Virus record (IMG/VR): IMGVR_UViG_3300028887_000067
Span: 96,001-160,000 of that record
Strand: one strand, 5' to 3'
Source: a virus
Lineage: Duplodnaviria > Caudoviricetes
Length of the DNA stretch: 64,000 nt
Below, piece after piece: positions 10,497-30,104 of this stretch. Within the stretch, counting starts at the first letter, position 1. Each line of letters begins with the position of its first letter. The notes beneath the pieces were generated by a model, which saw only the letters and a list, made by a program, of their open reading frames with translations, searched no databases and was not told the DNA's origin. Both the position numbers and the translations under genes were made by a program.

Positions 10497-10525
10497 TTGT
10501 AATTCAAATTCCCTTTTGCTACCTT
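10497..10525 (+). promoter_or_regulatory. sigma70-like promoter with conserved TTCAAA element (uvsX)
   Basis: TTGTAA-17 nt (ttcaaattcccttttgc)-TACCTT; near-identical copies precede gene 32, gene 43 and the sigma gene. Confidence 0.7.
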
Positions 10526-10577: not shown

Positions 10578-11879
10578 ATGGCAACAGCAAAGAAAACCGG
10601 AAAGGCAACCGTCGCTGACGACGGATTCGCATTCTTCCAAAACATCAAGGTCAACGACCGTTACGCGGACAAGTTGATCCGACACCCGAATTTCGGATTT
10701 TGCGACTCGGGTTCCTACGCCTTCAATGCCCTCCTGTCGGGCGACATTTTTGGCGGATTCCCCCTTAACAGATTCATCATGGTGGCCGGTAAGCAACAGT
10801 CCGGTAAGTCCTTCATCGCGAAGAACAATTTCGCCTATGGACTGATGAAGAAAGGCTACTACATTTTCTGGTACGACACCGAAGGTGAAACGACAGAAGA
10901 GGATTTGGAAGAACAGAACGGCTTCGTTCCGGGTCAGTACCGCTTGATCAAGGAAATCACGACGGTCGAAGACTACTTCATCTCGGTTAACGGCATCATC
11001 AACAAGCTCGAAGTAGACCGAGGCGACAGCATCGAGCTCAAGAGAAAGTGCGCCATCGTGCTTGACTCTCAGGGTGAGCTTTCTACCGAGAAGGCGATCA
11101 ACGACGCTACCAAGGGCGAAATCAAGTCCGACATGACCAAGGCCAAGATTCTGGCCGGTATGTACCGCTCTATTACGAACCGTTGTGCCAACCTCGGCAT
11201 ACCGATGTTCATCACCAACCATATCTACATGGACTCCAGTGGCGCCATGTTCGGTAATCCCGAAAAGATTGCCGGTGGTGAAGGCGCTCAGTTCTCCGCC
11301 TCTATCATTCTCAGCCTCTACAAGACCTATGAGAAGCCGTCTAAGGATGGCGATATCACCGGTGTCGTGCTTAATGCCACGATTACCAAGAGCCGTCTCG
11401 TGAAGGCCAAGCTCAAGGCGCCGATTTACGTTGACTACAACCACGGAATCGACCGCTACTATGGTCTCCAACGAATTGCAGAGAACGCCGGTCTGGTCGA
11501 AGAATGGAGCAAGGAAAAGTACGGCAACCTCGAAAAGCCGATTGACGAGGATACCGGCAAGAAGACCCTGAAGACCTGCTATGTCATCAAGGACCCGAAC
11601 AAGGAACCCGATCAGTGGATCGTATGTACCATGAAGGGTCTTATGAAGAAAACGGGACTGGGTACCATTCTTGAACCTTTGAACGAGTACGTTAAGAGCG
11701 AGTACAAGTTCCGCCCGCCGAAAATACGTCGTGACGACGAAGACCTCGACCTCGACGAAGAGCAGGTTAAGGTCGCCACAAAGAAGGCTGAACATAACAT
11801 CAAGGCCGAAGCCAAGTACATGGCGGAGACCGCGAAGAAGATGTTGCAGCCCGATGAATCGGTTGACGCAGCTGAGTAA
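10578..11879 (+). CDS. uvsX: UvsX RecA-like recombinase
   Basis: DSGSYAFNALLSG..FGG.P, Walker A GKQQSGKS, YDTE, IVLDS, TNH.Y, GGEG..FSAS, KSR. Confidence 0.92.
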   Translation: MATAKKTGKATVADDGFAFFQNIKVNDRYADKLIRHPNFGFCDSGSYAFNALLSGDIFGGFPLNRFIMVAGKQQSGKSFIAKNNFAYGLMKKGYYIFWYDTEGETTEEDLEEQNGFVPGQYRLIKEITTVEDYFISVNGIINKLEVDRGDSIELKRKCAIVLDSQGELSTEKAINDATKGEIKSDMTKAKILAGMYRSITNRCANLGIPMFITNHIYMDSSGAMFGNPEKIAGGEGAQFSASIILSLYKTYEKPSKDGDITGVVLNATITKSRLVKAKLKAPIYVDYNHGIDRYYGLQRIAENAGLVEEWSKEKYGNLEKPIDEDTGKKTLKTCYVIKDPNKEPDQWIVCTMKGLMKKTGLGTILEPLNEYVKSEYKFRPPKIRRDDEDLDLDEEQVKVATKKAEHNIKAEAKYMAETAKKMLQPDESVDAAE

Positions 11880-11885
11880 TCATAT

Positions 11886-11909
11886 GGGGTGTCACTTGGG
11901 TGACACCCC
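11886..11909 (+). terminator. perfect 10-bp hairpin between uvsX and the helicase gene (terminator, attenuator or processing site)
   Basis: GGGGTGTCAC-TTGG-GTGACACCCC with only a weak TCTTT tail. Confidence 0.55.
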
Positions 11910-11929
11910 TCTTTCCCCATTTAATCCAT

Positions 11930-13447
11930 ATGCAGCAAGTTTACGACTTAACAAGAGAAGATATCGTTCTTCGCACGTTTTTCAGCGACAAGCAGTTGTC
12001 CCAGAGGATGATGCCGTTCCTCGACCCGACTCTGTACGAGGACAAGACTAATCAGAAGCTTGCCGAAATCGTTAACAAGTTTGTGCGAAAGTATCATCGC
12101 CCGCCTGAGGCGCAGGAAATCGTCGTTGGCCTTGAAAATGCCGAAACGTATGGAGAAGTTCGTAAACACATCATTAACATCTATAACGCGAACGTGACCA
12201 CCCTGAGGCCGAACATGCTTGTCGAGCTGCTCGAAAAGTTTTATCAGGAAAAGGCCGTATATAACTTGCTGCGACAGTCTGCTGTGTCCATATACGAAAA
12301 CAACGTGGACGCAGTCCGGGAACTAATTCCCCAGATAAAGAACAAAATCAACTTTTCCCTGCATATGTCGCTCGGTCTCGACCTTATCGAGGATATCGAC
12401 GAGGCGAAACGCAGGCTCAAGGAAATTTCGCATCCTATCCCGTCCGGAATCACCGATGTCAACGTGTGGACCGCGCAGAGGAAGGACGACCCGTCGACAG
12501 GCGGATATCCCAGAAAAACGCTGTGCCTGTATGTAGGCCAGCCCAACGTCGGTAAGACGCTCGTTTTGTGTTCCGAGGCGTGCTATGCTGTACGCGCCGG
12601 CTACAACGTTATGTACATCTCGCTCGAGCTTTCCGAGGAATACCTGTGGCGACGTATGGCGGCGAACCTTACTGGCATCGACCAGTACCAGGTCACGGAG
12701 CTCTCTACCGAGGAATGCAAGCAACGCATCGAGAATGCAAGGCTTGCCTCCGCCGAGAAGATGGGCTGCCTGAAGATCAAGCGCATGAAGACAACCACCA
12801 CGCCGTACGAAATCGAGGCTGTCCTCGACGAGTACGAATCCGTTGTCGGCGCCCCGGTGGATATGCTTGTCATCGACTATATCGGCATTATGCGACCGAA
12901 TCAGCGTGCTGGTATGCTCGAGAATATGTACAAGGATGGTCAGGCCAAGGCTGAACAGATCAGAGAGATTTGCAACGAGAGGAACATTGTCGGACTCTCC
13001 GCCATCCAGTTCGGCCGCTCCGGTTATTCTTCGCTTGACGCCGGTCTTGAATCCGTGCGCGAGTCGTCCGGCTATAACGAGACCGCTGACTTGATGATTA
13101 CTATCACGATTGACTCGATTCTCAAGGGTCTGGATATGTACTATCACGTTATCAAGAAGAACCGCTTCGGCGAGAACGAGGTACCGTTCTACACAAAACG
13201 AAACTACGGCACCATGCTGTGGTATCCGGCTACCCAGGAGGATGTCGAGGAGGAGCACCGTCGTCGCGAGGAATTTGACGTGGTCACTTCGGCCACCTCC
13301 AATATGTTCGGTTCCTCGGTCAACACGGGGTTCGGTAGAACACAGAGGAGTCGTCCCGCCCCTCCGAAGAAGTCCCATCCGCCGATGACCGCCGCCGAAC
13401 AGAAGGAAGCGCTCGGGGCGCTTGACGACATGAGTGCGCTGGTGTGA
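11930..13447 (+). CDS. gp41-like DnaB-family replicative helicase
   Basis: GQPNVGKT Walker A, YISLELSE, VIDYIGIM, SAIQ, ES......ADL, KNRFG; follows uvsX as in T4-like phages. Confidence 0.9.
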   Translation: MQQVYDLTREDIVLRTFFSDKQLSQRMMPFLDPTLYEDKTNQKLAEIVNKFVRKYHRPPEAQEIVVGLENAETYGEVRKHIINIYNANVTTLRPNMLVELLEKFYQEKAVYNLLRQSAVSIYENNVDAVRELIPQIKNKINFSLHMSLGLDLIEDIDEAKRRLKEISHPIPSGITDVNVWTAQRKDDPSTGGYPRKTLCLYVGQPNVGKTLVLCSEACYAVRAGYNVMYISLELSEEYLWRRMAANLTGIDQYQVTELSTEECKQRIENARLASAEKMGCLKIKRMKTTTTPYEIEAVLDEYESVVGAPVDMLVIDYIGIMRPNQRAGMLENMYKDGQAKAEQIREICNERNIVGLSAIQFGRSGYSSLDAGLESVRESSGYNETADLMITITIDSILKGLDMYYHVIKKNRFGENEVPFYTKRNYGTMLWYPATQEDVEEEHRRREEFDVVTSATSNMFGSSVNTGFGRTQRSRPAPPKKSHPPMTAAEQKEALGALDDMSALV

Positions 13448-15081: not shown

Positions 15082-16191
15082 ATGGCAACTGATGATATCT
15101 CCCTTGACCTCCTTACCATTGATGGGGTCTCCAACCTGGCCCAGGCAACTGGCGACAACCGTGAAAGCGATCCGCGTCTGTGGAAGCCTCGCGTTAGCGC
15201 GAAGAATCCGACTTACGACGCAATCGTCCGCCTGCTTCCGCAGGGCGTTGAAGGTCTGAAGAACAAGACCTATCCCGGCGTGAAGGTAATCTACCACCAC
15301 TTAAGATCTGGACAAATGCACCGTGAAGTGAAATGCTGCAAGAGCATTCCCGGTCAGACCCATTGCCCTATCTGCGATGCGATCTGGAACCGTTACGACG
15401 AATTTGTCAAGCTCTACGGCAAGGATGATGCCCGTACGAAGGCTGTCGTGTCCATGGGTGCCCGCCCCGAATGGTTCACCAACGTCCTCGTGCGTCAGGA
15501 CGACAATGTCCCCGACAACAACGGCAAGGTGAAGGTGTGGCGTCATACCGATGCTATCGACCGCGAACTCCGTGCACCGTTCGATGACAGTGCCAACACT
15601 GAATCGAAGGGCAACGACCAGACCGTCCGTCCGGGCAGTCTGCGTGACCGCAAGAACAAGGAAAAACGACGTTTCTTCCCGCACTCCCCGACTACCGGTG
15701 TCGACTACGAAGTCACCGTCAGCTGGGATCCGGCCAAGAAGATGACGACGTACGATGGTTCTTGCTACGCAACGGAAGCCACTCCGCTGGCCGACACCAA
15801 GGACGAGATGTTGGACATCTTGAACAAGTGTTACGACCTCACTGACTTCCTCAAGGACGTTCCGTCCGAAGCCGAAGCCGCTAAGATCTACGCTGACTTC
15901 ATGAACGAAGTGTCCCGTCGCAATGAAAACGCCGCGTTCAACAAGGCCGGCTTTGCTCCCGAGGCTAATCCCAACTATGCCCAGGGCGCACAGGTCAGCA
16001 CCGTGAATGCCACCGAATTCCTTGGCTCCCAGAAGCCGGCTACCGAAGCCGCTTCCCAGCCTAGCGACGATGACCTCGTGAACCTCGCCGCTTCCAACAA
16101 GGTCGCCGCTTCCAAGGCAGCGCCCGTTCAGGAAGCAGCTCCTGCCGACCTTCCGGCGGTAGGTGGCGAAGACGACGACTTGCCGTTCTAA
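15082..16191 (+). CDS. gp32-like single-stranded DNA-binding protein
   Basis: DPRLWKP, AIVRLLP, H..C..CPIC zinc ligands, NVLVRQD...NGKVKVW, acidic tail EDDDLPF. Confidence 0.9.
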   Translation: MATDDISLDLLTIDGVSNLAQATGDNRESDPRLWKPRVSAKNPTYDAIVRLLPQGVEGLKNKTYPGVKVIYHHLRSGQMHREVKCCKSIPGQTHCPICDAIWNRYDEFVKLYGKDDARTKAVVSMGARPEWFTNVLVRQDDNVPDNNGKVKVWRHTDAIDRELRAPFDDSANTESKGNDQTVRPGSLRDRKNKEKRRFFPHSPTTGVDYEVTVSWDPAKKMTTYDGSCYATEATPLADTKDEMLDILNKCYDLTDFLKDVPSEAEAAKIYADFMNEVSRRNENAAFNKAGFAPEANPNYAQGAQVSTVNATEFLGSQKPATEAASQPSDDDLVNLAASNKVAASKAAPVQEAAPADLPAVGGEDDDLPF

Positions 16192-16264: not shown

Positions 16265-17410
16265 ATGTCCTTTTCTTATGAAAACATACCGTATGGAGCT
16301 CTGGATGAGGCTGTTCAGGAGCAATTTAGCCAGTATGCGATGAAGGAAAAGTCGTCCGAATACAACTTCGTGTGTCCTTTCTGCGGCGACCTAAACAGAC
16401 CTAACAAGAAGAAGGCTTACATATACAAGGACACTTGGCGTTTTAAGTGCTATCGGTGCGGCTATTCCAAGCACGTGATGCAGTATTTCAAGGAAAATGA
16501 TGATGCTACGTATTCGCGCCTGTTATTCATGGGATTCGATAATAATCGCGACCGCTCCGATAAAGATAACAACGATAAGGCCAAACCGAACATAATCCTC
16601 CCGTTTGAGGATGGTGAACTTGTGTCAATTCTTGACAATGTTCCTCTGGCGAGTGATGCAATCGCGCTTTGCAAGAAACGACTGATTCGTCCGGAGGTGT
16701 ACGAACACTGGTTTGTCTGTCTTGAAGGTGAACAGTTCCTGAAGCGTGACTCGGGAGGGGCATATATCTATGACGAGAACGGCCGCCCACTTGGAAATAA
16801 ATACAAGAACAGGATAATCATTCCGTTTTATAAATTTGGTGGGATGTGGAACCAATTCGACGCCCGTGCTATCGATCCTCAGAATCCGAATCGCTATATG
16901 AACTTCGAGGGTGTCAAGCGCGAGGCATACAATATCGACTTTGTCGATTTCACAAAGCCGTTCTACATTCTTGAAGGAACCGTTGACTCTACGTTTGTAA
17001 AGAACTCGATCGCCATAGGTGGAGTCAACCATCTCCAGGAAGTGCTCGCCGATAATCCAGATATCGAGCGAAATAAAGAAAATTGTACCATCATCTGGGA
17101 TAACGACGACCCCGGACGTAGTGCCCGCGTCGATACAGTTAGGAAAGGTTTCCGGTGGTTCGACTGGTCAGAAATCAAGAGCAAGGACATAAATGCCGCC
17201 GTGATGAATGGCGAGATGCCATTGGTCTCGTCTGGCTACGTAAATCCCGACTTCATTGAGGCTCGTTCGTGTAAGCCTGAAGGCGCCGAAATATTGTTCT
17301 CGTTGACCTATGGTGACATTAAGAAACGTGAACGCTCGGCACGGAAGGCTAATCAGGAGTTACTCCGCGCAAAGTTCTCCGCCAAGCGCAACCTAGGGAT
17401 ATATTTCTGA
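16265..17410 (+). CDS. gp61-like DNA primase
   Basis: CPFCGD...CYRCG zinc ribbon; RIIIPF; TOPRIM ILEGTVDS and WDND; KDIN. Confidence 0.9.
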   Translation: MSFSYENIPYGALDEAVQEQFSQYAMKEKSSEYNFVCPFCGDLNRPNKKKAYIYKDTWRFKCYRCGYSKHVMQYFKENDDATYSRLLFMGFDNNRDRSDKDNNDKAKPNIILPFEDGELVSILDNVPLASDAIALCKKRLIRPEVYEHWFVCLEGEQFLKRDSGGAYIYDENGRPLGNKYKNRIIIPFYKFGGMWNQFDARAIDPQNPNRYMNFEGVKREAYNIDFVDFTKPFYILEGTVDSTFVKNSIAIGGVNHLQEVLADNPDIERNKENCTIIWDNDDPGRSARVDTVRKGFRWFDWSEIKSKDINAAVMNGEMPLVSSGYVNPDFIEARSCKPEGAEILFSLTYGDIKKRERSARKANQELLRAKFSAKRNLGIYF

Positions 17411-19524
17411 TGCTTCAAGGAATCCGAAGATTTGGCGTGCCCGAATACGTTACCGCTCAATATGTAGCGGACTATCTGGGTCGTCCGCTCGAAGCGATGC
17501 ACCAAAGTGGATTTTTCGACGGGATTCCTTACAGGCTGACCGCGAACCGAGTAAAGCATTATCATCTGAACAGCTGCATCAAGATGATGCGCGTCTACAA
17601 TATCGACCCGCCTTGCCGGGTTCACCCGTATGCGAAGTGGAGGCCGTCTGAGATAATTGCCGACCTTGACGTGACGGCATGTGCCTATTTAAATCTTGTC
17701 AAGGCAGGCAAGCTGGTTGAACAGGAGCCCGACCATCGGGGAAAGTTCGTGTACTACAAGGACTACGAGCGATTCATCAAGAACTACGTGCCTATGAAGA
17801 TGATTCCTTGGCTTCCCGCGAAGCTGAACATTAGGGACGCGGCTGAGTTCATCGGCACTACACCGAACCGGCTCAAGGCGGAAGTACGCAGGGGCAATGC
17901 CGACGCGGTTTGGTATAACCGCACCACCGACGGAAAACGTCGGTATCGCTGGATGACACGGGAGCAGATTATTCAGTATATCACGAAGCAGATCGAAGGC
18001 GCGGGGCATCGTTCGAAGAAACTCATTAGGAAGAACCCTCTGTCCGACGTACTTACCGTACCGCTTACAGCAATCTACCTGAAAACGACCGAGGTCAAGG
18101 TCAAGTCGATGGTCAATTCGGGTTATCTCGAACCCGGAAAGGCCTCGCTGTCCAAGAACAAGTCCCGACTATATAACGTATTCGACAAGGAATATCTTGA
18201 CGCGAAATACGATCATTATTGCAAGGTAAAATACTACAACGAGGGCAAGTGCTATTACACTCGTGCGGCGATCCGCAACAAGTTCGGCAAGACGAACTAC
18301 TGGATTACTACCTATATAGTCGGTAAGTGCCATGAGTTGCTTTCGAATGACGGAAAGCTGTATACGCCCGAGGAACGCGCCGAAGAGAACCGGAAGATGG
18401 GCCGTATACCCGAGGCCAGTATGGGATGGTCGCAAAAGGAAGTCGAGGCCATCGTGGAGAGCGGTGTCGAGATAGACCCCGTCGTCGAGCTTTCCGAATA
18501 CCGGATGAAACATTTGGAAGCGCTTGACAAGACAAACTATAACGAGCTTCGCCGAAAATTGAGGATGTACCGCGAGAAGAAGTACGCGAAGGTGCTCGTC
18601 AAGCCGGTAAAGGACCCAGTCGAGATCGCCCTGCGTGCCGCTTTCGAGGAGAAGGTGTTCCGTCGCGAGGCCCGCATCAGCGAGATTCTGGCCGCCGCCG
18701 CAGAGAAGCGTGCCGAAGAAAATCAAATTCGCTCCCTGCTCGGTATAGATCCGAAGACAATCGTTACCTTGACGCCGGACATTATCCTGAAGAACAACTT
18801 TGAACCGGAGAAGGTACTTATCCTTTATAGCCGTAACGGATGGAACGACGTATACACGAAGCATTCGGTCGAGCCCGTTGAATGTACGTATAGGGCCAAG
18901 GACGCGGCCATCGTTACCACCCGTGTCAAGACGAAAGTAATCTCGGTATTCAGCAACATAGCCAGAGTTGCTCGCAAGATTTCGAACCTCCCGCCAAAAG
19001 TGTCTCCGTCGTGGATAATCCTGGCCCCGTCCAGTTCAATAGTGGCGGACCCGTCATTTTACCTGAAGCTGGACAATGTCCCGACCGAGTATGGAGCGGT
19101 TGGCCCGTTCGGGTATGAATATGTCCTACCCAATGGCAGCTGGATCAACTGTCCGGCCACTTATGGGATGTTCAGTGAATACTCTCTGACGGATCAGTCG
19201 AAGTCCCGACGGATTGCAGGTACCCGTAGCGCGGTCGGTACTCACGAGGTTGCCGTGCTCGACGGCCCGTTTGTTGCCGTTCGCGGTGGATATTTGAAAC
19301 TGCTTTGCGAACTTAAAAATTTCAGCGTATTGGGCGACGGGCGGTCGTTTGTCCCGTTCGCCATATCTATGATTATGCGCCGCCTGGGGGTGAAAATGTT
19401 GCAAATCGAGGTGGATTCCATGCGGTGCAGCGATTTTGAGCCGGATAGGTATAATGTGCAGTGGAACAGGGCCGAACGCATGCTAATCGGCTTTGCGAAC
19501 CCGAGTTTGAAATTCAAATCCTAA
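17410..19524 (+). CDS. multi-HTH (excisionase/MerR-like repeats) protein fused to a degenerate GT-A glycosyltransferase-like domain
   Basis: About five repeats such as LNIRDAAEFIGTTPNRL and VLTVPLTAIYLKTT; C-terminal GAVGPFG...EVAVLDGPFVAVR resembles GT2-like families. Confidence 0.55.
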   Translation: MLQGIRRFGVPEYVTAQYVADYLGRPLEAMHQSGFFDGIPYRLTANRVKHYHLNSCIKMMRVYNIDPPCRVHPYAKWRPSEIIADLDVTACAYLNLVKAGKLVEQEPDHRGKFVYYKDYERFIKNYVPMKMIPWLPAKLNIRDAAEFIGTTPNRLKAEVRRGNADAVWYNRTTDGKRRYRWMTREQIIQYITKQIEGAGHRSKKLIRKNPLSDVLTVPLTAIYLKTTEVKVKSMVNSGYLEPGKASLSKNKSRLYNVFDKEYLDAKYDHYCKVKYYNEGKCYYTRAAIRNKFGKTNYWITTYIVGKCHELLSNDGKLYTPEERAEENRKMGRIPEASMGWSQKEVEAIVESGVEIDPVVELSEYRMKHLEALDKTNYNELRRKLRMYREKKYAKVLVKPVKDPVEIALRAAFEEKVFRREARISEILAAAAEKRAEENQIRSLLGIDPKTIVTLTPDIILKNNFEPEKVLILYSRNGWNDVYTKHSVEPVECTYRAKDAAIVTTRVKTKVISVFSNIARVARKISNLPPKVSPSWIILAPSSSIVADPSFYLKLDNVPTEYGAVGPFGYEYVLPNGSWINCPATYGMFSEYSLTDQSKSRRIAGTRSAVGTHEVAVLDGPFVAVRGGYLKLLCELKNFSVLGDGRSFVPFAISMIMRRLGVKMLQIEVDSMRCSDFEPDRYNVQWNRAERMLIGFANPSLKFKS

Positions 19525-19554: not shown

Positions 19555-20427
19555 ATGCAAGAAGATATTAAGTCGATTTCCATCAAGTATAGTGAGCAGT
19601 ACGCCGAGCTGCTGAAGACCGTCACCAACGTGACCAAGGCCGGTTGCACGATTATGCAACACGTCGATGACAAGTACCGCATAAGCATACCGAACCAGGC
19701 GCTCCTGACTCACATAGCGGCCGGAGAGAAAGATCTTTATTTCGACGCGCAACGTATCAACGTGTTCTCTATGACCGAGTTCATGAAGTATTCGGAGGCC
19801 GTAGGGTATCCGAAGCGAGGCGAAGTGTCTCTGTCCCAGATGATTTCCATTACCGGCAAGCGATACGAATATATCAAGTTCGCTTCGAGGGGTCTCACCT
19901 GCTTAACGCCGACCGCCGACCCGAGCTGCTTCAAGAAGACCGCCACAAAAATTCCGGGTGACCGGAACAATCCGGGAAAGAAGATTCGAGTCGCCGAGAT
20001 TTGCTTTACCGAGGAATCTATCAAGGATTTCGAGAAGAAAATCAAGCTGGTGCCTACATGCAAGTTTGTCACCCTGTTCATCGACGAGGGTGGGGTCAAG
20101 TTCTATATCAAGGGAAAGCTGGCTCAGCAGATTACTTATTGTGTCGAGTCGACATGCACGAGGCATCTCGACGATAAGCTGGTGAAGAAGCTTTTCCGCC
20201 CCGGACGCGTGGCGATGTTCCCCGCCACGTATTTCAGCATGTTGAAGGGGTTTGGCGGTACGTTCGAAATCGATATTATGTATGTCCCGAAGGACGATGG
20301 CTCCGACCAGATGACTCTCGTGGGGTACAGCTATGTCAAGGGAGCTGACGAGAACCAGCCGATTTTACTATATTCTGCAGCGTCGGAATGTTCCGCAGCA
20401 TCGATTGGATTTGATTTAATAATCTAG
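19555..20427 (+). CDS. gp45-like sliding clamp
   Basis: ELLKTVTNV, INVFSMTEFM and TADPS fit the gp45 patterns ILKNFxxIN, IYDLxEFL and ADPS; replication context. Confidence 0.65.
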   Translation: MQEDIKSISIKYSEQYAELLKTVTNVTKAGCTIMQHVDDKYRISIPNQALLTHIAAGEKDLYFDAQRINVFSMTEFMKYSEAVGYPKRGEVSLSQMISITGKRYEYIKFASRGLTCLTPTADPSCFKKTATKIPGDRNNPGKKIRVAEICFTEESIKDFEKKIKLVPTCKFVTLFIDEGGVKFYIKGKLAQQITYCVESTCTRHLDDKLVKKLFRPGRVAMFPATYFSMLKGFGGTFEIDIMYVPKDDGSDQMTLVGYSYVKGADENQPILLYSAASECSAASIGFDLII

Positions 20428-25256: not shown

Positions 25257-25285
25257 TTGCAATTCAAACTCCCTTTTTCTACCTT
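25257..25285 (+). promoter_or_regulatory. sigma70-like promoter with TTCAAA element (gene 43)
   Basis: TTGCAA-17 nt (ttcaaactccctttttc)-TACCTT. Confidence 0.72.
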
Positions 25286-25304
25286 CGTCCCGAGGAAACC
25301 CCTT

Positions 25305-28268
25305 ATGCCCGTAACGAATGAATCAGTGACCAAGAACGTGAGGCCGATGTACAGGTCGGTCTACCACGACACGGCGAACGACCGCATGTACATATGGTAC
25401 GTGGACGGCTCGTTTGACGCGGTTCCGGTCAAGCACCAGTTCTACACGACGCAAAAGGGGCAGTACGACGCCATAGAGTGCGGGATGAAGAACATCTGGG
25501 GCGAGGAGGTCTACAGGGTAGACGTTCCGAAACGATCCGGTCTCTCCGCGTACGAATTTGAAAAACGAATCAAGCAGGAGCACGAGGGGTCAGACAACAA
25601 CCTCGCCGAGATTGATATCGACCCGAGATGCCGATTCCTGCAGTCTCACTACGCCGACACGGGCATGATGCACCCGAACATGGATGACATCAACCTGTGC
25701 TTTATGGATATCGAGAACGCCACGACCGGCCGATTCTCCGCGCCCCTAGAGGCCTTGTACCCAATTAACGTCGTCACGCTTTCTTTTTCCAAGGACAAAC
25801 GACGATACACGTTCGGCCTGAAGCGGGATATCGACGACGAGACCAAAGAATTTTTCCGATCCAAGAACTGTACCTATACAATCTGTTCCGACGAGGCCGA
25901 CCTTATATCGAAGGTAATGTATTGTATCGGGTCCAACGACGTGGACATTCTGTCCGGTTGGAATTTCGAGTACGATACCGTTTACATGGCCACGCGCATA
26001 AAGAAGCTCAACGAGAACCTTCCGCGTTCCAGCCAGCTATCGCTTGACCTTATGTCGAGGATGCGCGGTCAGAACAAGCACGCGTATATCAATAAGGAAA
26101 ACCAGCTAGTCATCAACGGCACCGAGGTCATTGACTTCCTCGCGCTGTACAAGAAGTATACGTTTTCCGAAGAATCTTCCTACAAGCTTGACTATATCGG
26201 TGGCAAGGTCGCCGGACAGCATAAGGCCCCGCTTCCCGACGGCTACCAGTCGTGGATTAATCACTGGTCCATGTATGTGAAGTACAACTTCATCGACGTC
26301 GAAATTCTGGAAATGCTCAACGAGAACACCCAGATGTTCCGGCTCGCCGTCACGTCGTCTGCCGCTGCACGTGTCCCGTTTTCTTTCGTATTCGCTTCCA
26401 AGAAGATGCTGACCGGCTTCATGCTGGACCACCTGCATCATACAAATCGCGTTTTTCCTCCCTATCGTACCCAGCACAAGGAAGAGTTTCCTGGTGCGTT
26501 CGTGTATTCCGTCCCCGGCTACAAGGAATATCTAGTATCGTACGACTACCGGTCGCTATACCCGTCGATTATGATGACTTTCAATACGTCGCCCGAGATG
26601 AAGGTGACGTTCCCGATAGACTACGTCCTTACCGACGAAGAGCGGGAGAACCTTATCAAGAGTCCGTGGGACCATAACGGCAAGTATCAGGTGTATTACA
26701 GGAAGGACCGCGTCGGCGTTGTTCCCGAAGTGACTAGGTTGCTGTTCGATGGCCGTTCGGAACTCAAGAAGCAGATGAAGAAGGCCAAGAAAGCCGGCAA
26801 CAAGGAACAGGCGGCTGTCTTCGACATGATGCAGAAGGTGTACAAGGTTCTAGGAAACTCTCTCTACGGCCTGCTCGGTTCCGAACATTTTGCCCTATAC
26901 GATGTTGACAATGCGGCGTCCATTACGGCATACGGCCAGCGTCTCATCAAGTTCACCATCGAGTGCCTCGCCGAGTACATCAACAACGACCTGAGCACGG
27001 ACGACCGGTTCTACAACGTGTTCGGTTATCGTCCCGAAATCGACCCGAAGATGGTCGGCACGTTCGAAGATTCCGAAGGCGAGGTAAACTATCGCCGTAT
27101 GAGCCATGGCGATACCGACTCGTTCTTCGTCCACTTTGGCGATATTTACGAGCCGTTCCGGCAACGGCAGGGCACGGGTACGTCGGTATTCGTGTTCAAG
27201 AAGAACGAGATGATTACAAAGAAGGAGTTCGATTCGGAGCACGAACTTGACTCGAAGAAGTTCTTTAACAAGATGTGCCTCGAGTACGGGGGCGACTCGT
27301 GGCGGTCGGCCGATATGAGGACTCCGGACGAAAAGACCGGATTTACCAAGTGTCAGATCACGTTCGCCGACGGCATATATTTCTCTGGCGAGTACAGGGT
27401 TATTTACAACCGATACCGGCTCACCGACTTCTGCAGAATCCTCGACGCGTGTATCCTTGAGGAGGAGCTGGACAAGTATATGCTGGCCTATGCCAACAAG
27501 TGGAACTACCTCACCAATGAGCTGTTCCTCAAGCGGGAAAAGTGCATATACAAGGCCATCGTTACCGCAAAAAAGAAATACATCTGCCTGGTCGAGAGTA
27601 TGGAAGACATCGTGTATCTCGACCAAGGACACAAGGATGACGAGGGCAAGTGGGTCAAGGGCGACCTGTCAGTCAAGCCGGAATATGCGATTACCGGTCT
27701 CGAACTCGTGCGCAGCTCCACAGCCATGTTCGGTCGCGACCGTATGATGGAAATGGTGAACTTGATGATGGACGGTCTCGACCGCAACAAGGTCCGCGCC
27801 CGCCTCCTAGAGATGAAGAAGGAATTCTTCGATGCCGTTAATGAGGGCAACATCAACTATATCGCCTGTCCGAGCGGTGTCAAGACTTGTCCGCCCCCGT
27901 TCGAAGTCCTCGAGAAGATGACGACTGAGCAAAAGCTCGAGAACAAGTATGAATGGCGATGCCAGGGAGCGTCCGTCTGGAATTACCTGATCCTGCATGA
28001 CCCGGAACTATCGAAGCATACCTATGAGCCGGTTGCCGCCGGTTCGAAGATCAGATTCATCAAGAAGGCCGACAACCTGTTCGGCGTGTCGATTATCTGC
28101 TACACCGGTGATGAATGCCCGAAAAGGTTACTTGAGATATTCCATCCCGACTGGGAGGAACATTGGAAGACCAGCGTTGCACAGATTCTCGGACGACTTT
28201 TTGATGCAGTCGGTTGGGACGAACAGCTCGAATATGACGAAAGCGATTTTATAATGGATTACCTATGA
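25305..28268 (+). CDS. family B DNA polymerase (gp43-like)
   Basis: ExoI DIE, ExoII GWNFEYD, ExoIII YNFIDV; DYRSLYPS, KVLGNSLYG, GDTDS, KKKY, GLE..RSS; ATG 25305 after GAGG. Confidence 0.95.
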   Translation: MPVTNESVTKNVRPMYRSVYHDTANDRMYIWYVDGSFDAVPVKHQFYTTQKGQYDAIECGMKNIWGEEVYRVDVPKRSGLSAYEFEKRIKQEHEGSDNNLAEIDIDPRCRFLQSHYADTGMMHPNMDDINLCFMDIENATTGRFSAPLEALYPINVVTLSFSKDKRRYTFGLKRDIDDETKEFFRSKNCTYTICSDEADLISKVMYCIGSNDVDILSGWNFEYDTVYMATRIKKLNENLPRSSQLSLDLMSRMRGQNKHAYINKENQLVINGTEVIDFLALYKKYTFSEESSYKLDYIGGKVAGQHKAPLPDGYQSWINHWSMYVKYNFIDVEILEMLNENTQMFRLAVTSSAAARVPFSFVFASKKMLTGFMLDHLHHTNRVFPPYRTQHKEEFPGAFVYSVPGYKEYLVSYDYRSLYPSIMMTFNTSPEMKVTFPIDYVLTDEERENLIKSPWDHNGKYQVYYRKDRVGVVPEVTRLLFDGRSELKKQMKKAKKAGNKEQAAVFDMMQKVYKVLGNSLYGLLGSEHFALYDVDNAASITAYGQRLIKFTIECLAEYINNDLSTDDRFYNVFGYRPEIDPKMVGTFEDSEGEVNYRRMSHGDTDSFFVHFGDIYEPFRQRQGTGTSVFVFKKNEMITKKEFDSEHELDSKKFFNKMCLEYGGDSWRSADMRTPDEKTGFTKCQITFADGIYFSGEYRVIYNRYRLTDFCRILDACILEEELDKYMLAYANKWNYLTNELFLKREKCIYKAIVTAKKKYICLVESMEDIVYLDQGHKDDEGKWVKGDLSVKPEYAITGLELVRSSTAMFGRDRMMEMVNLMMDGLDRNKVRARLLEMKKEFFDAVNEGNINYIACPSGVKTCPPPFEVLEKMTTEQKLENKYEWRCQGASVWNYLILHDPELSKHTYEPVAAGSKIRFIKKADNLFGVSIICYTGDECPKRLLEIFHPDWEEHWKTSVAQILGRLFDAVGWDEQLEYDESDFIMDYL

Positions 28269-29066: not shown

Positions 29067-30104
29067 ATGGTAAATCTGGGAAATTTCGAAGATGAAGATG
29101 GCATCGGAGCTGCCGTCAAGAAAAACGAGCCATGGACTAAGAAGTACGCGGCTCACGACCTTGATGGGCTTGTGTTGCCTAGCGAGATTCGCGACGAGAT
29201 CGAGTTCGCGATGAAGGAGAACAGCTTTACCGATTATATCTTCCATTCCGGTGCTCCGGGCACCGGCAAGTCCTCTCTGGCAAAGGTCATCCCCGAGATG
29301 CTGGGGGTCGACTACAAGTTCTTCAAGTGTACGAAGGATGCCGAAATCATGGCCGACATCGAGGAGTTCATCATGTACGGCTCCAGCGACGGCAAGCCGA
29401 GATTCATTATTATCGACGAGGCCGATAAGCCGAAGGACGCGGACAGAATGTTCCGCTTCCTGCAGGCGACCATTTCCGAGGACACCCGTACCGTCAGGTT
29501 CATCCTCACGATGAACGATTTCCATCGTATGCCCGACGCGATGATTTCCCGTTGCCACGCGATCGAGTTCGTCGTCCCGTCTCTCGAGGAGAGCGACTAC
29601 AAGAACAGACTTTACGCCCACCTGATGAAGATAGCGAAGGCGGAAACCGAACCGTACGGCGGCATCGTCGAGAAGAATACAATCATCAGCCTTATCAAGC
29701 AGTACTTTCCTGATATCCGTCAGATGATTGTCTGCATGCAGTCCATCTTTAACCGGAACAAGGGAAGCATTAAGGGTGACCTTCCGCAGGTCAGCGGTGA
29801 CCTCATCAAGACCATCTACGATATGACCATTAATTGCCAGCATCTCGACCTTTATCACTACATCACGGCCAATGTGAAGTTCCCGCGAAGCATCTACAGC
29901 CCGTTCGGCCGTTATTTCGTGGATCACATCACGGAGAAGTTCTCCCCGTCCATCCTGATTCCGTTTGGTATCAAGCTGGCTGATTACCAGGACAAGGCCT
30001 CCCATTCCGTGGACCAGATGTTCAACCTCTGGGGATTCTTGCTCAACCTGATGCAGATTCTCCAGACGGCCAAGAAAGAGGCTGCCAATGGCGTTCGACC
30101 ATAA
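29067..30104 (+). CDS. gp44-like clamp loader AAA+ subunit
   Basis: PWTKKY, GAPGTGKS, IIIDEAD, RFILTMN, SRC motif, FPDIR. Confidence 0.92.
   Translation: MVNLGNFEDEDGIGAAVKKNEPWTKKYAAHDLDGLVLPSEIRDEIEFAMKENSFTDYIFHSGAPGTGKSSLAKVIPEMLGVDYKFFKCTKDAEIMADIEEFIMYGSSDGKPRFIIIDEADKPKDADRMFRFLQATISEDTRTVRFILTMNDFHRMPDAMISRCHAIEFVVPSLEESDYKNRLYAHLMKIAKAETEPYGGIVEKNTIISLIKQYFPDIRQMIVCMQSIFNRNKGSIKGDLPQVSGDLIKTIYDMTINCQHLDLYHYITANVKFPRSIYSPFGRYFVDHITEKFSPSILIPFGIKLADYQDKASHSVDQMFNLWGFLLNLMQILQTAKKEAANGVRP

Follow-up and report, generated by a model that had tools for sequence, protein, structure and literature searches.

In lambda Xis, Tn916 Xis and BldC (families HTH_17 and MerR_1), each DNA-binding unit consists of a strand, a helix-turn-helix (HTH), a beta-hairpin wing and a C-terminal helix, and on DNA Xis and BldC assemble head to tail into oligomers. 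Among proteins of the glycosyltransferase GT-A fold, canonical GT2 enzymes (SpsA, 1qg8/1h7l; PF00535) keep a DxD motif and an xED motif, and their beta1 motif and the Asp after beta2 contact the nucleotide; a GT-A 'glycosyltransferase-like' family (majastridin, 2nxv/2qgi; PF13712) is common in phages. To our knowledge, a covalent excisionase-type array and a glycosyltransferase fold stripped of its motifs are not known to work together in replication, and the protein parts list of the T4-type replisome, a textbook system, is thought to be complete. The GT-A DNA glycosyltransferases of phages, which share this fold with the kinetoplastid base J enzyme JGT, keep the motifs R...DDD...EDY/F and accompany a ThyS or 5mYOX/TET enzyme (bioRxiv 10.1101/2023.12.21.572611). 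Here we examine a gene, P0001, in a 64,000-nucleotide stretch of viral DNA (the window; positions 96,001 to 160,000 of IMG/VR record IMGVR_UViG_3300028887_000067) that comes from a 308,245-base viral contig with an estimated completeness of 81%. The source is a giant T4-like phage from a deep, uncultured jumbo-phage lineage. Positions below are those of the window unless the contig is named.

P0001 resembles each of these systems in part. Its N-terminal half is predicted to repeat the Xis/BldC unit, yet unlike Xis and MerR proteins it has four to five such units in one chain together with a GT-A fold, and it has no recombinase or MerR-type effector domain. Its C-terminal domain is about 10% identical to the majastridin/PF13712 family, from which it differs in having no D-x-D after strand beta4, in being fused to an HTH array and in lying inside a replication module. 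Like the DNA glycosyltransferases it is phage-encoded and sits beside replication genes, but it lacks R...DDD...EDY/F, and the contig has no match to the ThyS family or to Tet/JBP. Unlike canonical GT2 enzymes, including three encoded by the same phage, it appears to keep neither DxD nor YED/GED. Both component folds are therefore known; what is new is that an HTH_17 array of four to five units is joined to a GT-A fold, that the motifs of this fold are eroded and that the gene holds a conserved, primase-coupled position in a T4-type module. None of these features was described in Pfam, PHROGs, the PDB or the literature searched. The function of P0001 is probably in DNA replication. As its best explanation, to which we assign a probability of roughly 45%, we propose a DNA-anchored accessory protein of the primosome or replisome in which the GT-A fold has been repurposed.

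The gene and its place beside the primase

The gene, the primase before it and their junction are as follows.

17410..19524, + strand: P0001, open reading frame (ORF) of 704 amino acids (ORF reading, homologues, AlphaFold2 model)
16265..17410, + strand: gp61-like DNA primase (phrog_47, E 5e-37; weak Pfam matches to Zn_ribbon_DnaG and DNAG_N)
17408..17412, + strand: TGATG stop/start overlap of primase and P0001, translational coupling (sequence reading)

A sequence-only reading of the window had placed a 704-residue ORF here, coupled to the primase within a replisome operon. The ORF is present exactly as claimed, and direct reading shows that the TGA of the primase and the ATG of P0001 overlap as TGATG. 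Within a set of 5.8 billion proteins we found 10 full-length homologues at 43-99% identity, and an exhaustive HMMER representative search with a profile of P0001 homologues returned 44 proteins, of which some 26 are full length. P0001 is a real, conserved gene. Neither the single sequence nor the profiles gave a sequence match in Pfam, PHROG or the PDB, and tblastn found none among 50,697 phage records (GenBank phages). The nearest kinship to cultured phages is remote, the primase being at most 28% identical to those of T4-like cyanophages and Klebsiella phages. An AlphaFold2 model of P0001 built with a 52-sequence alignment reached a mean predicted local distance difference test score (pLDDT) of 91, as against 31 for a single-sequence run.

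The gene order around P0001 is conserved across a deep phage clade, which bears out its claimed place in a replication module. All 16 viral contigs recovered with the long-form profile carry the order uvsX-helicase-o188-o300-gp32-primase-target-o290-o527-o400-o196-polB, and the same order recurs in 7 further long-form loci. Among the 16 contigs the target protein diverges faster than the polymerase, its identity dropping to 26-30% at loci whose polB retains 55-58%.

A profile of the C-terminal domain revealed a second architecture of about 345 amino acids, with an acidic N-terminal tail, a basic helix ending in an N..R..LGI-type junction and a GT-A-like domain. This short form has no HTH unit and no Pfam match. 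It lies directly after the primase on 10 more distant contigs, whose polB is 39-47% identical to that of the target phage, and is followed there by o290, o527 and polB with one extra acidic ORF inserted. Either the target or the short form is immediately preceded by the primase in 33 of 33 related loci. The GT-A-like domain is thus the constant, primase-linked element and the HTH array an addition in one branch. Because the short form occupies the same locus without the array, the GT-A-like domain, and not DNA-sequence recognition, is the conserved core of the function. Across a deep lineage of giant phages from gut and rumen, an additional gene that evolves fast but is never lost stays locked to the primase.

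The N-terminal tail of the short-form loci (L021-L030; for example L022:8001-9086 and L028:7956-8990) has the consensus FEGDGxI, and the extra acidic ORF that follows the short form is 217-336 amino acids long. This peptide, which is acidic and hydrophobic, may serve in docking.

The GT-A-like domain and its altered motifs

The C-terminal domain and the places in it that correspond to catalytic motifs are listed here.

18745..19521, + strand: GT-A-fold domain, residues 446-704, nearest to the Glyco_tranf_2_5/majastridin type
19027..19038, + strand: P540-S541-S542-S543 at the DxD place after beta4 (family columns; hhalign against GT2 DGD)
19348..19356, + strand: F647-V648-P649 at the xED catalytic-base place (hhalign against GT2 YED; family columns)

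The GT-A fold that had been suspected from the sequence is confirmed for the C-terminal domain by three concurring structure searches. Foldseek matched the AlphaFold model to majastridin (2nxv/2qgi), B4GALNT1, LH3, SpsA and others in the PDB (E 1.4e-5, probability 1.0), and in BFVD the matches were viral 'glycosyltransferase like family' proteins (E 2.5e-8). Weaker links at the sequence level agree. The ESM Atlas features of residues 446-704 scored 0.98 to viral PF13712 clusters, and PF13712 (Glyco_tranf_2_5; cut-off 27 bits) reached 11 bits (E 0.037) on residues 560-625 of P0001 and 21.6 bits (E 2e-4) on the same block of orthologue P0028, both below the cut-off. The matched stretch, profile positions 83-149 of 210, falls after the DxD, and the nucleotide-binding half is without a match. 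PF00535 did not match P0001, and no canonical PF13712 protein that could bridge the alignment was found in five related phage genomes.

Residues 535-549 read WIILAPSSSIVADPS, with no D-x-D and a single Asp, D547, which caps the next helix. The sequence after strand beta4 is WIILAPSSSIVAD, again without DxD, the strand itself (535-540) leading into P-S-S-S-I-V-A-D-P-S. In about 50 family members columns 541-543 are [ST]-[ST]-x, and D547 is the sole invariant acid there. At the place of the GT2 motif x-E-D, the helix that precedes the last core strands begins S-F-V-P-F-A-I-S-M in P0001 and Y-M in the short form. We compared a 65-sequence profile of the C-terminal domain with a 122-sequence profile of a canonical GT2 family of the same phage using hhalign. 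The two were collinear, with DGD falling on P540-S541-S542 and YED on F647-V648-P649; local posterior confidence was high at the DxD site, with an overall probability of 0.1% that is not significant. Alignments of the domain with single GT2 ORFs of the phage were uninformative. The earlier statement that the DxD place reads PSSS and the YD place VP is consistent with everything computed, at positions assigned by alignment.

The canonical metal-dependent apparatus therefore appears to be missing from the GT-A domain of P0001. The same phage carries three ordinary GT2 genes, one of them fused to a helical repeat region, in which DxD takes the form DGD or DVND.

Contig 189748-190662, - strand: ordinary GT2 gene, intact DxD and YED/GED motifs
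Contig 235665-236573, + strand: ordinary GT2 gene, intact DxD and YED/GED motifs
Contig ~26367-26648, - strand: ordinary GT2 gene, intact DxD and YED/GED motifs

Since these other GT2 genes are intact, the motif erosion is specific to the target gene. The GT2 gene at 189748-190662 has homologues on many contigs of 200-470 kb.

The beta1 motif and the Asp after beta2 (D498) are kept only among close relatives and not family-wide, and the nucleotide-binding half is the least conserved part of the GT-A domain. Conservation peaks instead over residues 541-660 and at the start of HTH unit 5, and the block 561-626 (GAVxPFGYE...GPFVAVRG) is the best-conserved part of the protein. Residues W535, D547, G568, G576, G586, G619-P620-F621, A623, R625, S653 and Q665 are invariant or nearly so family-wide. 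H612, D618, D643, E667 and D669 are polar residues conserved among long forms; D643, five residues upstream of the xED place, is conserved only among these. The domain had been described as an apparently dead glycosyltransferase. The canonical DxD and xED residues do appear to be gone, but 'dead' is too strong a word, because the [ST][ST] pair at the DxD site, the invariant D547 and R625 and the conserved block 561-626 have been retained.

These retained residues could alternatively belong to an active transferase of a non-canonical kind, metal-independent or rewired, that is held on DNA by the HTH units and, behind the fork, adds sugar or some other modification to new phage DNA or to a protein of the replisome. 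In a high-confidence model the GT-A fold is intact, small hydroxyl residues are kept at the DxD site, and there are conserved polar residues both family-wide (D547, R625, S653) and among long forms (H612, D618, D643, E667, D669). Fusion to a DNA-binding array would fit a DNA substrate, and phage GT-A enzymes that glycosylate DNA do exist, their genes often lying close to those for a polymerase, a helicase or a clamp (bioRxiv 10.1101/2023.12.21.572611). Nevertheless, we consider such an activity unlikely. The known phage enzymes have R...DDD...EDY/F where P0001 has PSS(S) and FVP, the nucleotide-binding beta1 motif and beta2 Asp are not kept family-wide, and the short form has no HTH array to hold it on DNA. 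Moreover, the 308-kb contig, about 81% complete, contains no match to PF00303 (thymidylate synthase and dCMP- or dUMP-hydroxymethylase), which was detected in 10 control genomes, and no match to PF12851 (Tet/JBP), for which the control genomes were silent too, so that in so diverged a phage this second negative is weak. There is therefore no sign of hydroxymethylated DNA that would be open to glycosylation. If an active transferase were nonetheless the correct explanation, it would define a DxD-less, DNA-tethered class of GT-A enzymes.

Failure to detect a PF00303 gene is in itself unusual in so large a T4-like phage, on a contig that is about 81% complete.

The helix-turn-helix array and the linker

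The N-terminal half of P0001 and the linker that follows it comprise these features, where H denotes helix and E strand.

17437..17607, + strand: winged HTH unit 1, residues 10-66 (model: E13-15, H16-23, H27-32, E41-43, E49-52, H53-63)
17635..17790, + strand: winged HTH unit 2, residues 76-127 (model: H79-86, H90-98, E105-108, E111-115, H116-126)
17815..18003, + strand: winged HTH unit 3, residues 136-198, net charge +6, the most canonical and basic of the array (HTH_17/MerR_1 in orthologues; hhalign)
18043..18240, + strand: winged HTH unit 4, residues 212-277 (HTH_17 in orthologues; hhalign)
18250..18465, + strand: putative winged HTH unit 5, residues 281-352, with an extra helix within the wing (model only: H285-292, H296-303, E309-311, H320-330, E337-341, H342-351)
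18466..18744, + strand: charged helical linker, residues 353-445, two long helices (H357-391, H403-444; low pLDDT at 394-399)

DSSP assignment on the pLDDT-91 model gave five successive units of the form (strand)-helix-turn-helix-beta hairpin-helix, at approximately residues 10-66, 76-127, 136-198, 212-277 and 281-352. The strand-HTH-wing-helix topology is thus seen five times in the model, and the units coincide with the motifs that the sequence-only reading had quoted for five winged-HTH units. P0001 itself has no match to HTH_17 (PF12728) or MerR_1 (PF13411) at E <= 0.1. HTH_17 does match 16 of the 52 family members at E <= 1, and at places equivalent to units 1 to 4 individual orthologues exceed the Pfam gathering cut-offs (27 bits for HTH_17 and 21.6 bits for MerR_1):

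Unit 1: MerR_1, 23.5 bits, orthologue P0032
Unit 2: HTH_17, 27.8 bits, orthologue P0024
Unit 3: HTH_17, 31.6 bits, orthologue P0016
Unit 3: MerR_1, 25.0 bits, orthologue P0028
Unit 4: HTH_17, 30.7 bits, orthologue P0032

Sub-threshold matches were also present at the unit 2 place in P0017 and P0025 (HTH_17) and at the unit 4 place in P0009 to P0011. When sub-alignments of the units were compared with hhalign, units 2, 3 and 4 proved mutually homologous (93-96% probability, E 1e-8 to 4e-7), with unit 2 matching units 3 and 4 at 93% and unit 3 matching unit 4 at 95.6% (E 1e-8). Unit 1 is weakly similar to the other units (E 5e-4 to 5e-3; against units 3 and 4, 5e-4 to 1e-3), and unit 5 gave no Pfam match and no significant hhalign match to the others. 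Detection of the repeats needed the deeper alignment, as self-comparison of a shallow 10-sequence alignment by hhalign was negative (E 0.17). On this basis four winged HTH units of the excisionase/MerR type are supported and a fifth is putative, because units 1-4 have matches in orthologues and unit 5, which is called on secondary structure only, has neither Pfam nor hhalign support.

Of the 28 full-length orthologues, 27 have an N-terminal half with a net charge between +18 and +31. Among the units, 3 and 4 are the most canonical, most basic and fastest-evolving, and the best-conserved part of this half is the start of unit 5 (its first 20 residues). ESM Atlas features of the N-terminal half pointed to HTH_17 clusters, many of them from Bacteroidota, with scores of about 0.9 that count as leads. 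The charged coiled coil claimed after the array is predicted as two long helices, 357-391 and 403-444, and the linker ends in an N-x-x-R-x-x-L-G-I motif that two alignments show to be common to the short form.

An array of this kind suggests repeated sites, and excisionase/MerR-type HTH domains are typical of site-specific DNA binders. P0001 might accordingly regulate transcription or bind origins in a sequence-specific manner, with a pseudo-enzyme domain that detects a nucleotide sugar or modified DNA; in this way it would tune the early/late programme or the firing of origins. The rapid evolution of units 3 and 4 looks as if they were co-evolving with DNA sites. However, the short form stands at the same locus without any HTH unit, which rules out site-specific DNA recognition as the conserved function. 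The poor conservation of the nucleotide-binding half likewise argues against a preserved pocket for nucleoside-diphosphate sugars. As for possible sites, TTCAAA, which had been put forward as a promoter element that P0001 might bind, is not enriched in window positions 1-64000 and is somewhat depleted (21 sites against 35 expected from shuffles). The one array of helical period found in the genome (11 bp, at 280.9 kb of the contig) is not shared with the closest complete relative. Such a regulator is thus, in our estimation, quite improbable.

Several TTCAAA copies do lie 40-80 nt upstream of gene starts, at 10503 (uvsX), 15005 (gp32) and 19513 (the 290-residue gene downstream of P0001). The 11-bp array has about nine copies at contig 280879-280970, outside the window; its core is CCAGACCCATG, three copies are perfect, it adjoins an AT-rich stretch and its period is not a multiple of three. 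It was considered as a site for a five-unit reader and dropped, since TRF finds none in the syntenic region of that relative (355 kb).

Proposed role and neighbouring genes

We favour the explanation that P0001 is a DNA-anchored accessory protein of the primosome or replisome. The HTH array would lie along duplex DNA with roughly one unit per helical turn, and in this covalent tandem form would mimic the head-to-tail oligomers of Xis and BldC. The two long helices of the linker may dimerise the protein or serve as a spacer. The GT-A-derived domain, the sole part in common with the short form, would have given up sugar transfer by the canonical mechanism and would instead bind either a partner (the primase or some other component of the replisome) or a small ligand, and its conserved face would be the block 561-626 and not the nucleotide-sugar pocket.

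Several points weigh against this explanation. At the DxD and xED sites, residues were equated by the order of the motifs, by predicted secondary structure and by an hhalign alignment; their equivalence is inferred rather than proven because that alignment is not significant overall. The invariant D547 and R625, together with the conserved hydroxyl pair, could form a non-canonical active site. DNA binding, dimerisation and contact with the primase or another replisome protein are likewise steps that we infer, and lying beside the primase gene is no proof that the two are connected physically or in function. If the proposal is correct, P0001 would be a new case in which an enzyme fold has been taken over for a structural or regulatory part, and it would represent a new way to tether the primosome to DNA.

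A more far-reaching version, which we advance only tentatively and regard as doubtful, is that, in a large uncultured jumbo-phage lineage, this glycosyltransferase-derived pseudoenzyme is a core part of the T4-type primosome that had gone unrecognised, for example the missing gp59-like helicase loader or a primase-regulating factor, and that one branch acquired a covalent five-unit Xis-like array to clamp it to duplex DNA. The Pfam models of gp59 found no match on the 308-kb contig, which leaves room for P0001 in a role such as helicase loading. This negative is weak evidence, as is that for the clamp below, because the phage is very diverged.

Downstream of P0001 lies a conserved gene that had been labelled the clamp.

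19555..20427, + strand: 290-residue protein, syntenic in all 33 loci, 'clamp' label unconfirmed

The label finds no support: the protein has no clamp match in Pfam or PHROG, a 12-sequence profile of it finds nothing in the PDB, and both Pfam models of gp45 are silent over the whole 308-kb contig.

The other genes of the replication module are as follows.

10578-11879: UvsX-like recombinase
11900-13447: DnaB/gp41-like helicase
15082-16191: gp32-like single-stranded DNA-binding protein
Downstream of 19524: four conserved, unassigned ORFs between P0001 and the polymerase
25257-28268: family-B polymerase
29067-30104: clamp loader
After the clamp loader: tail sheath and tube genes

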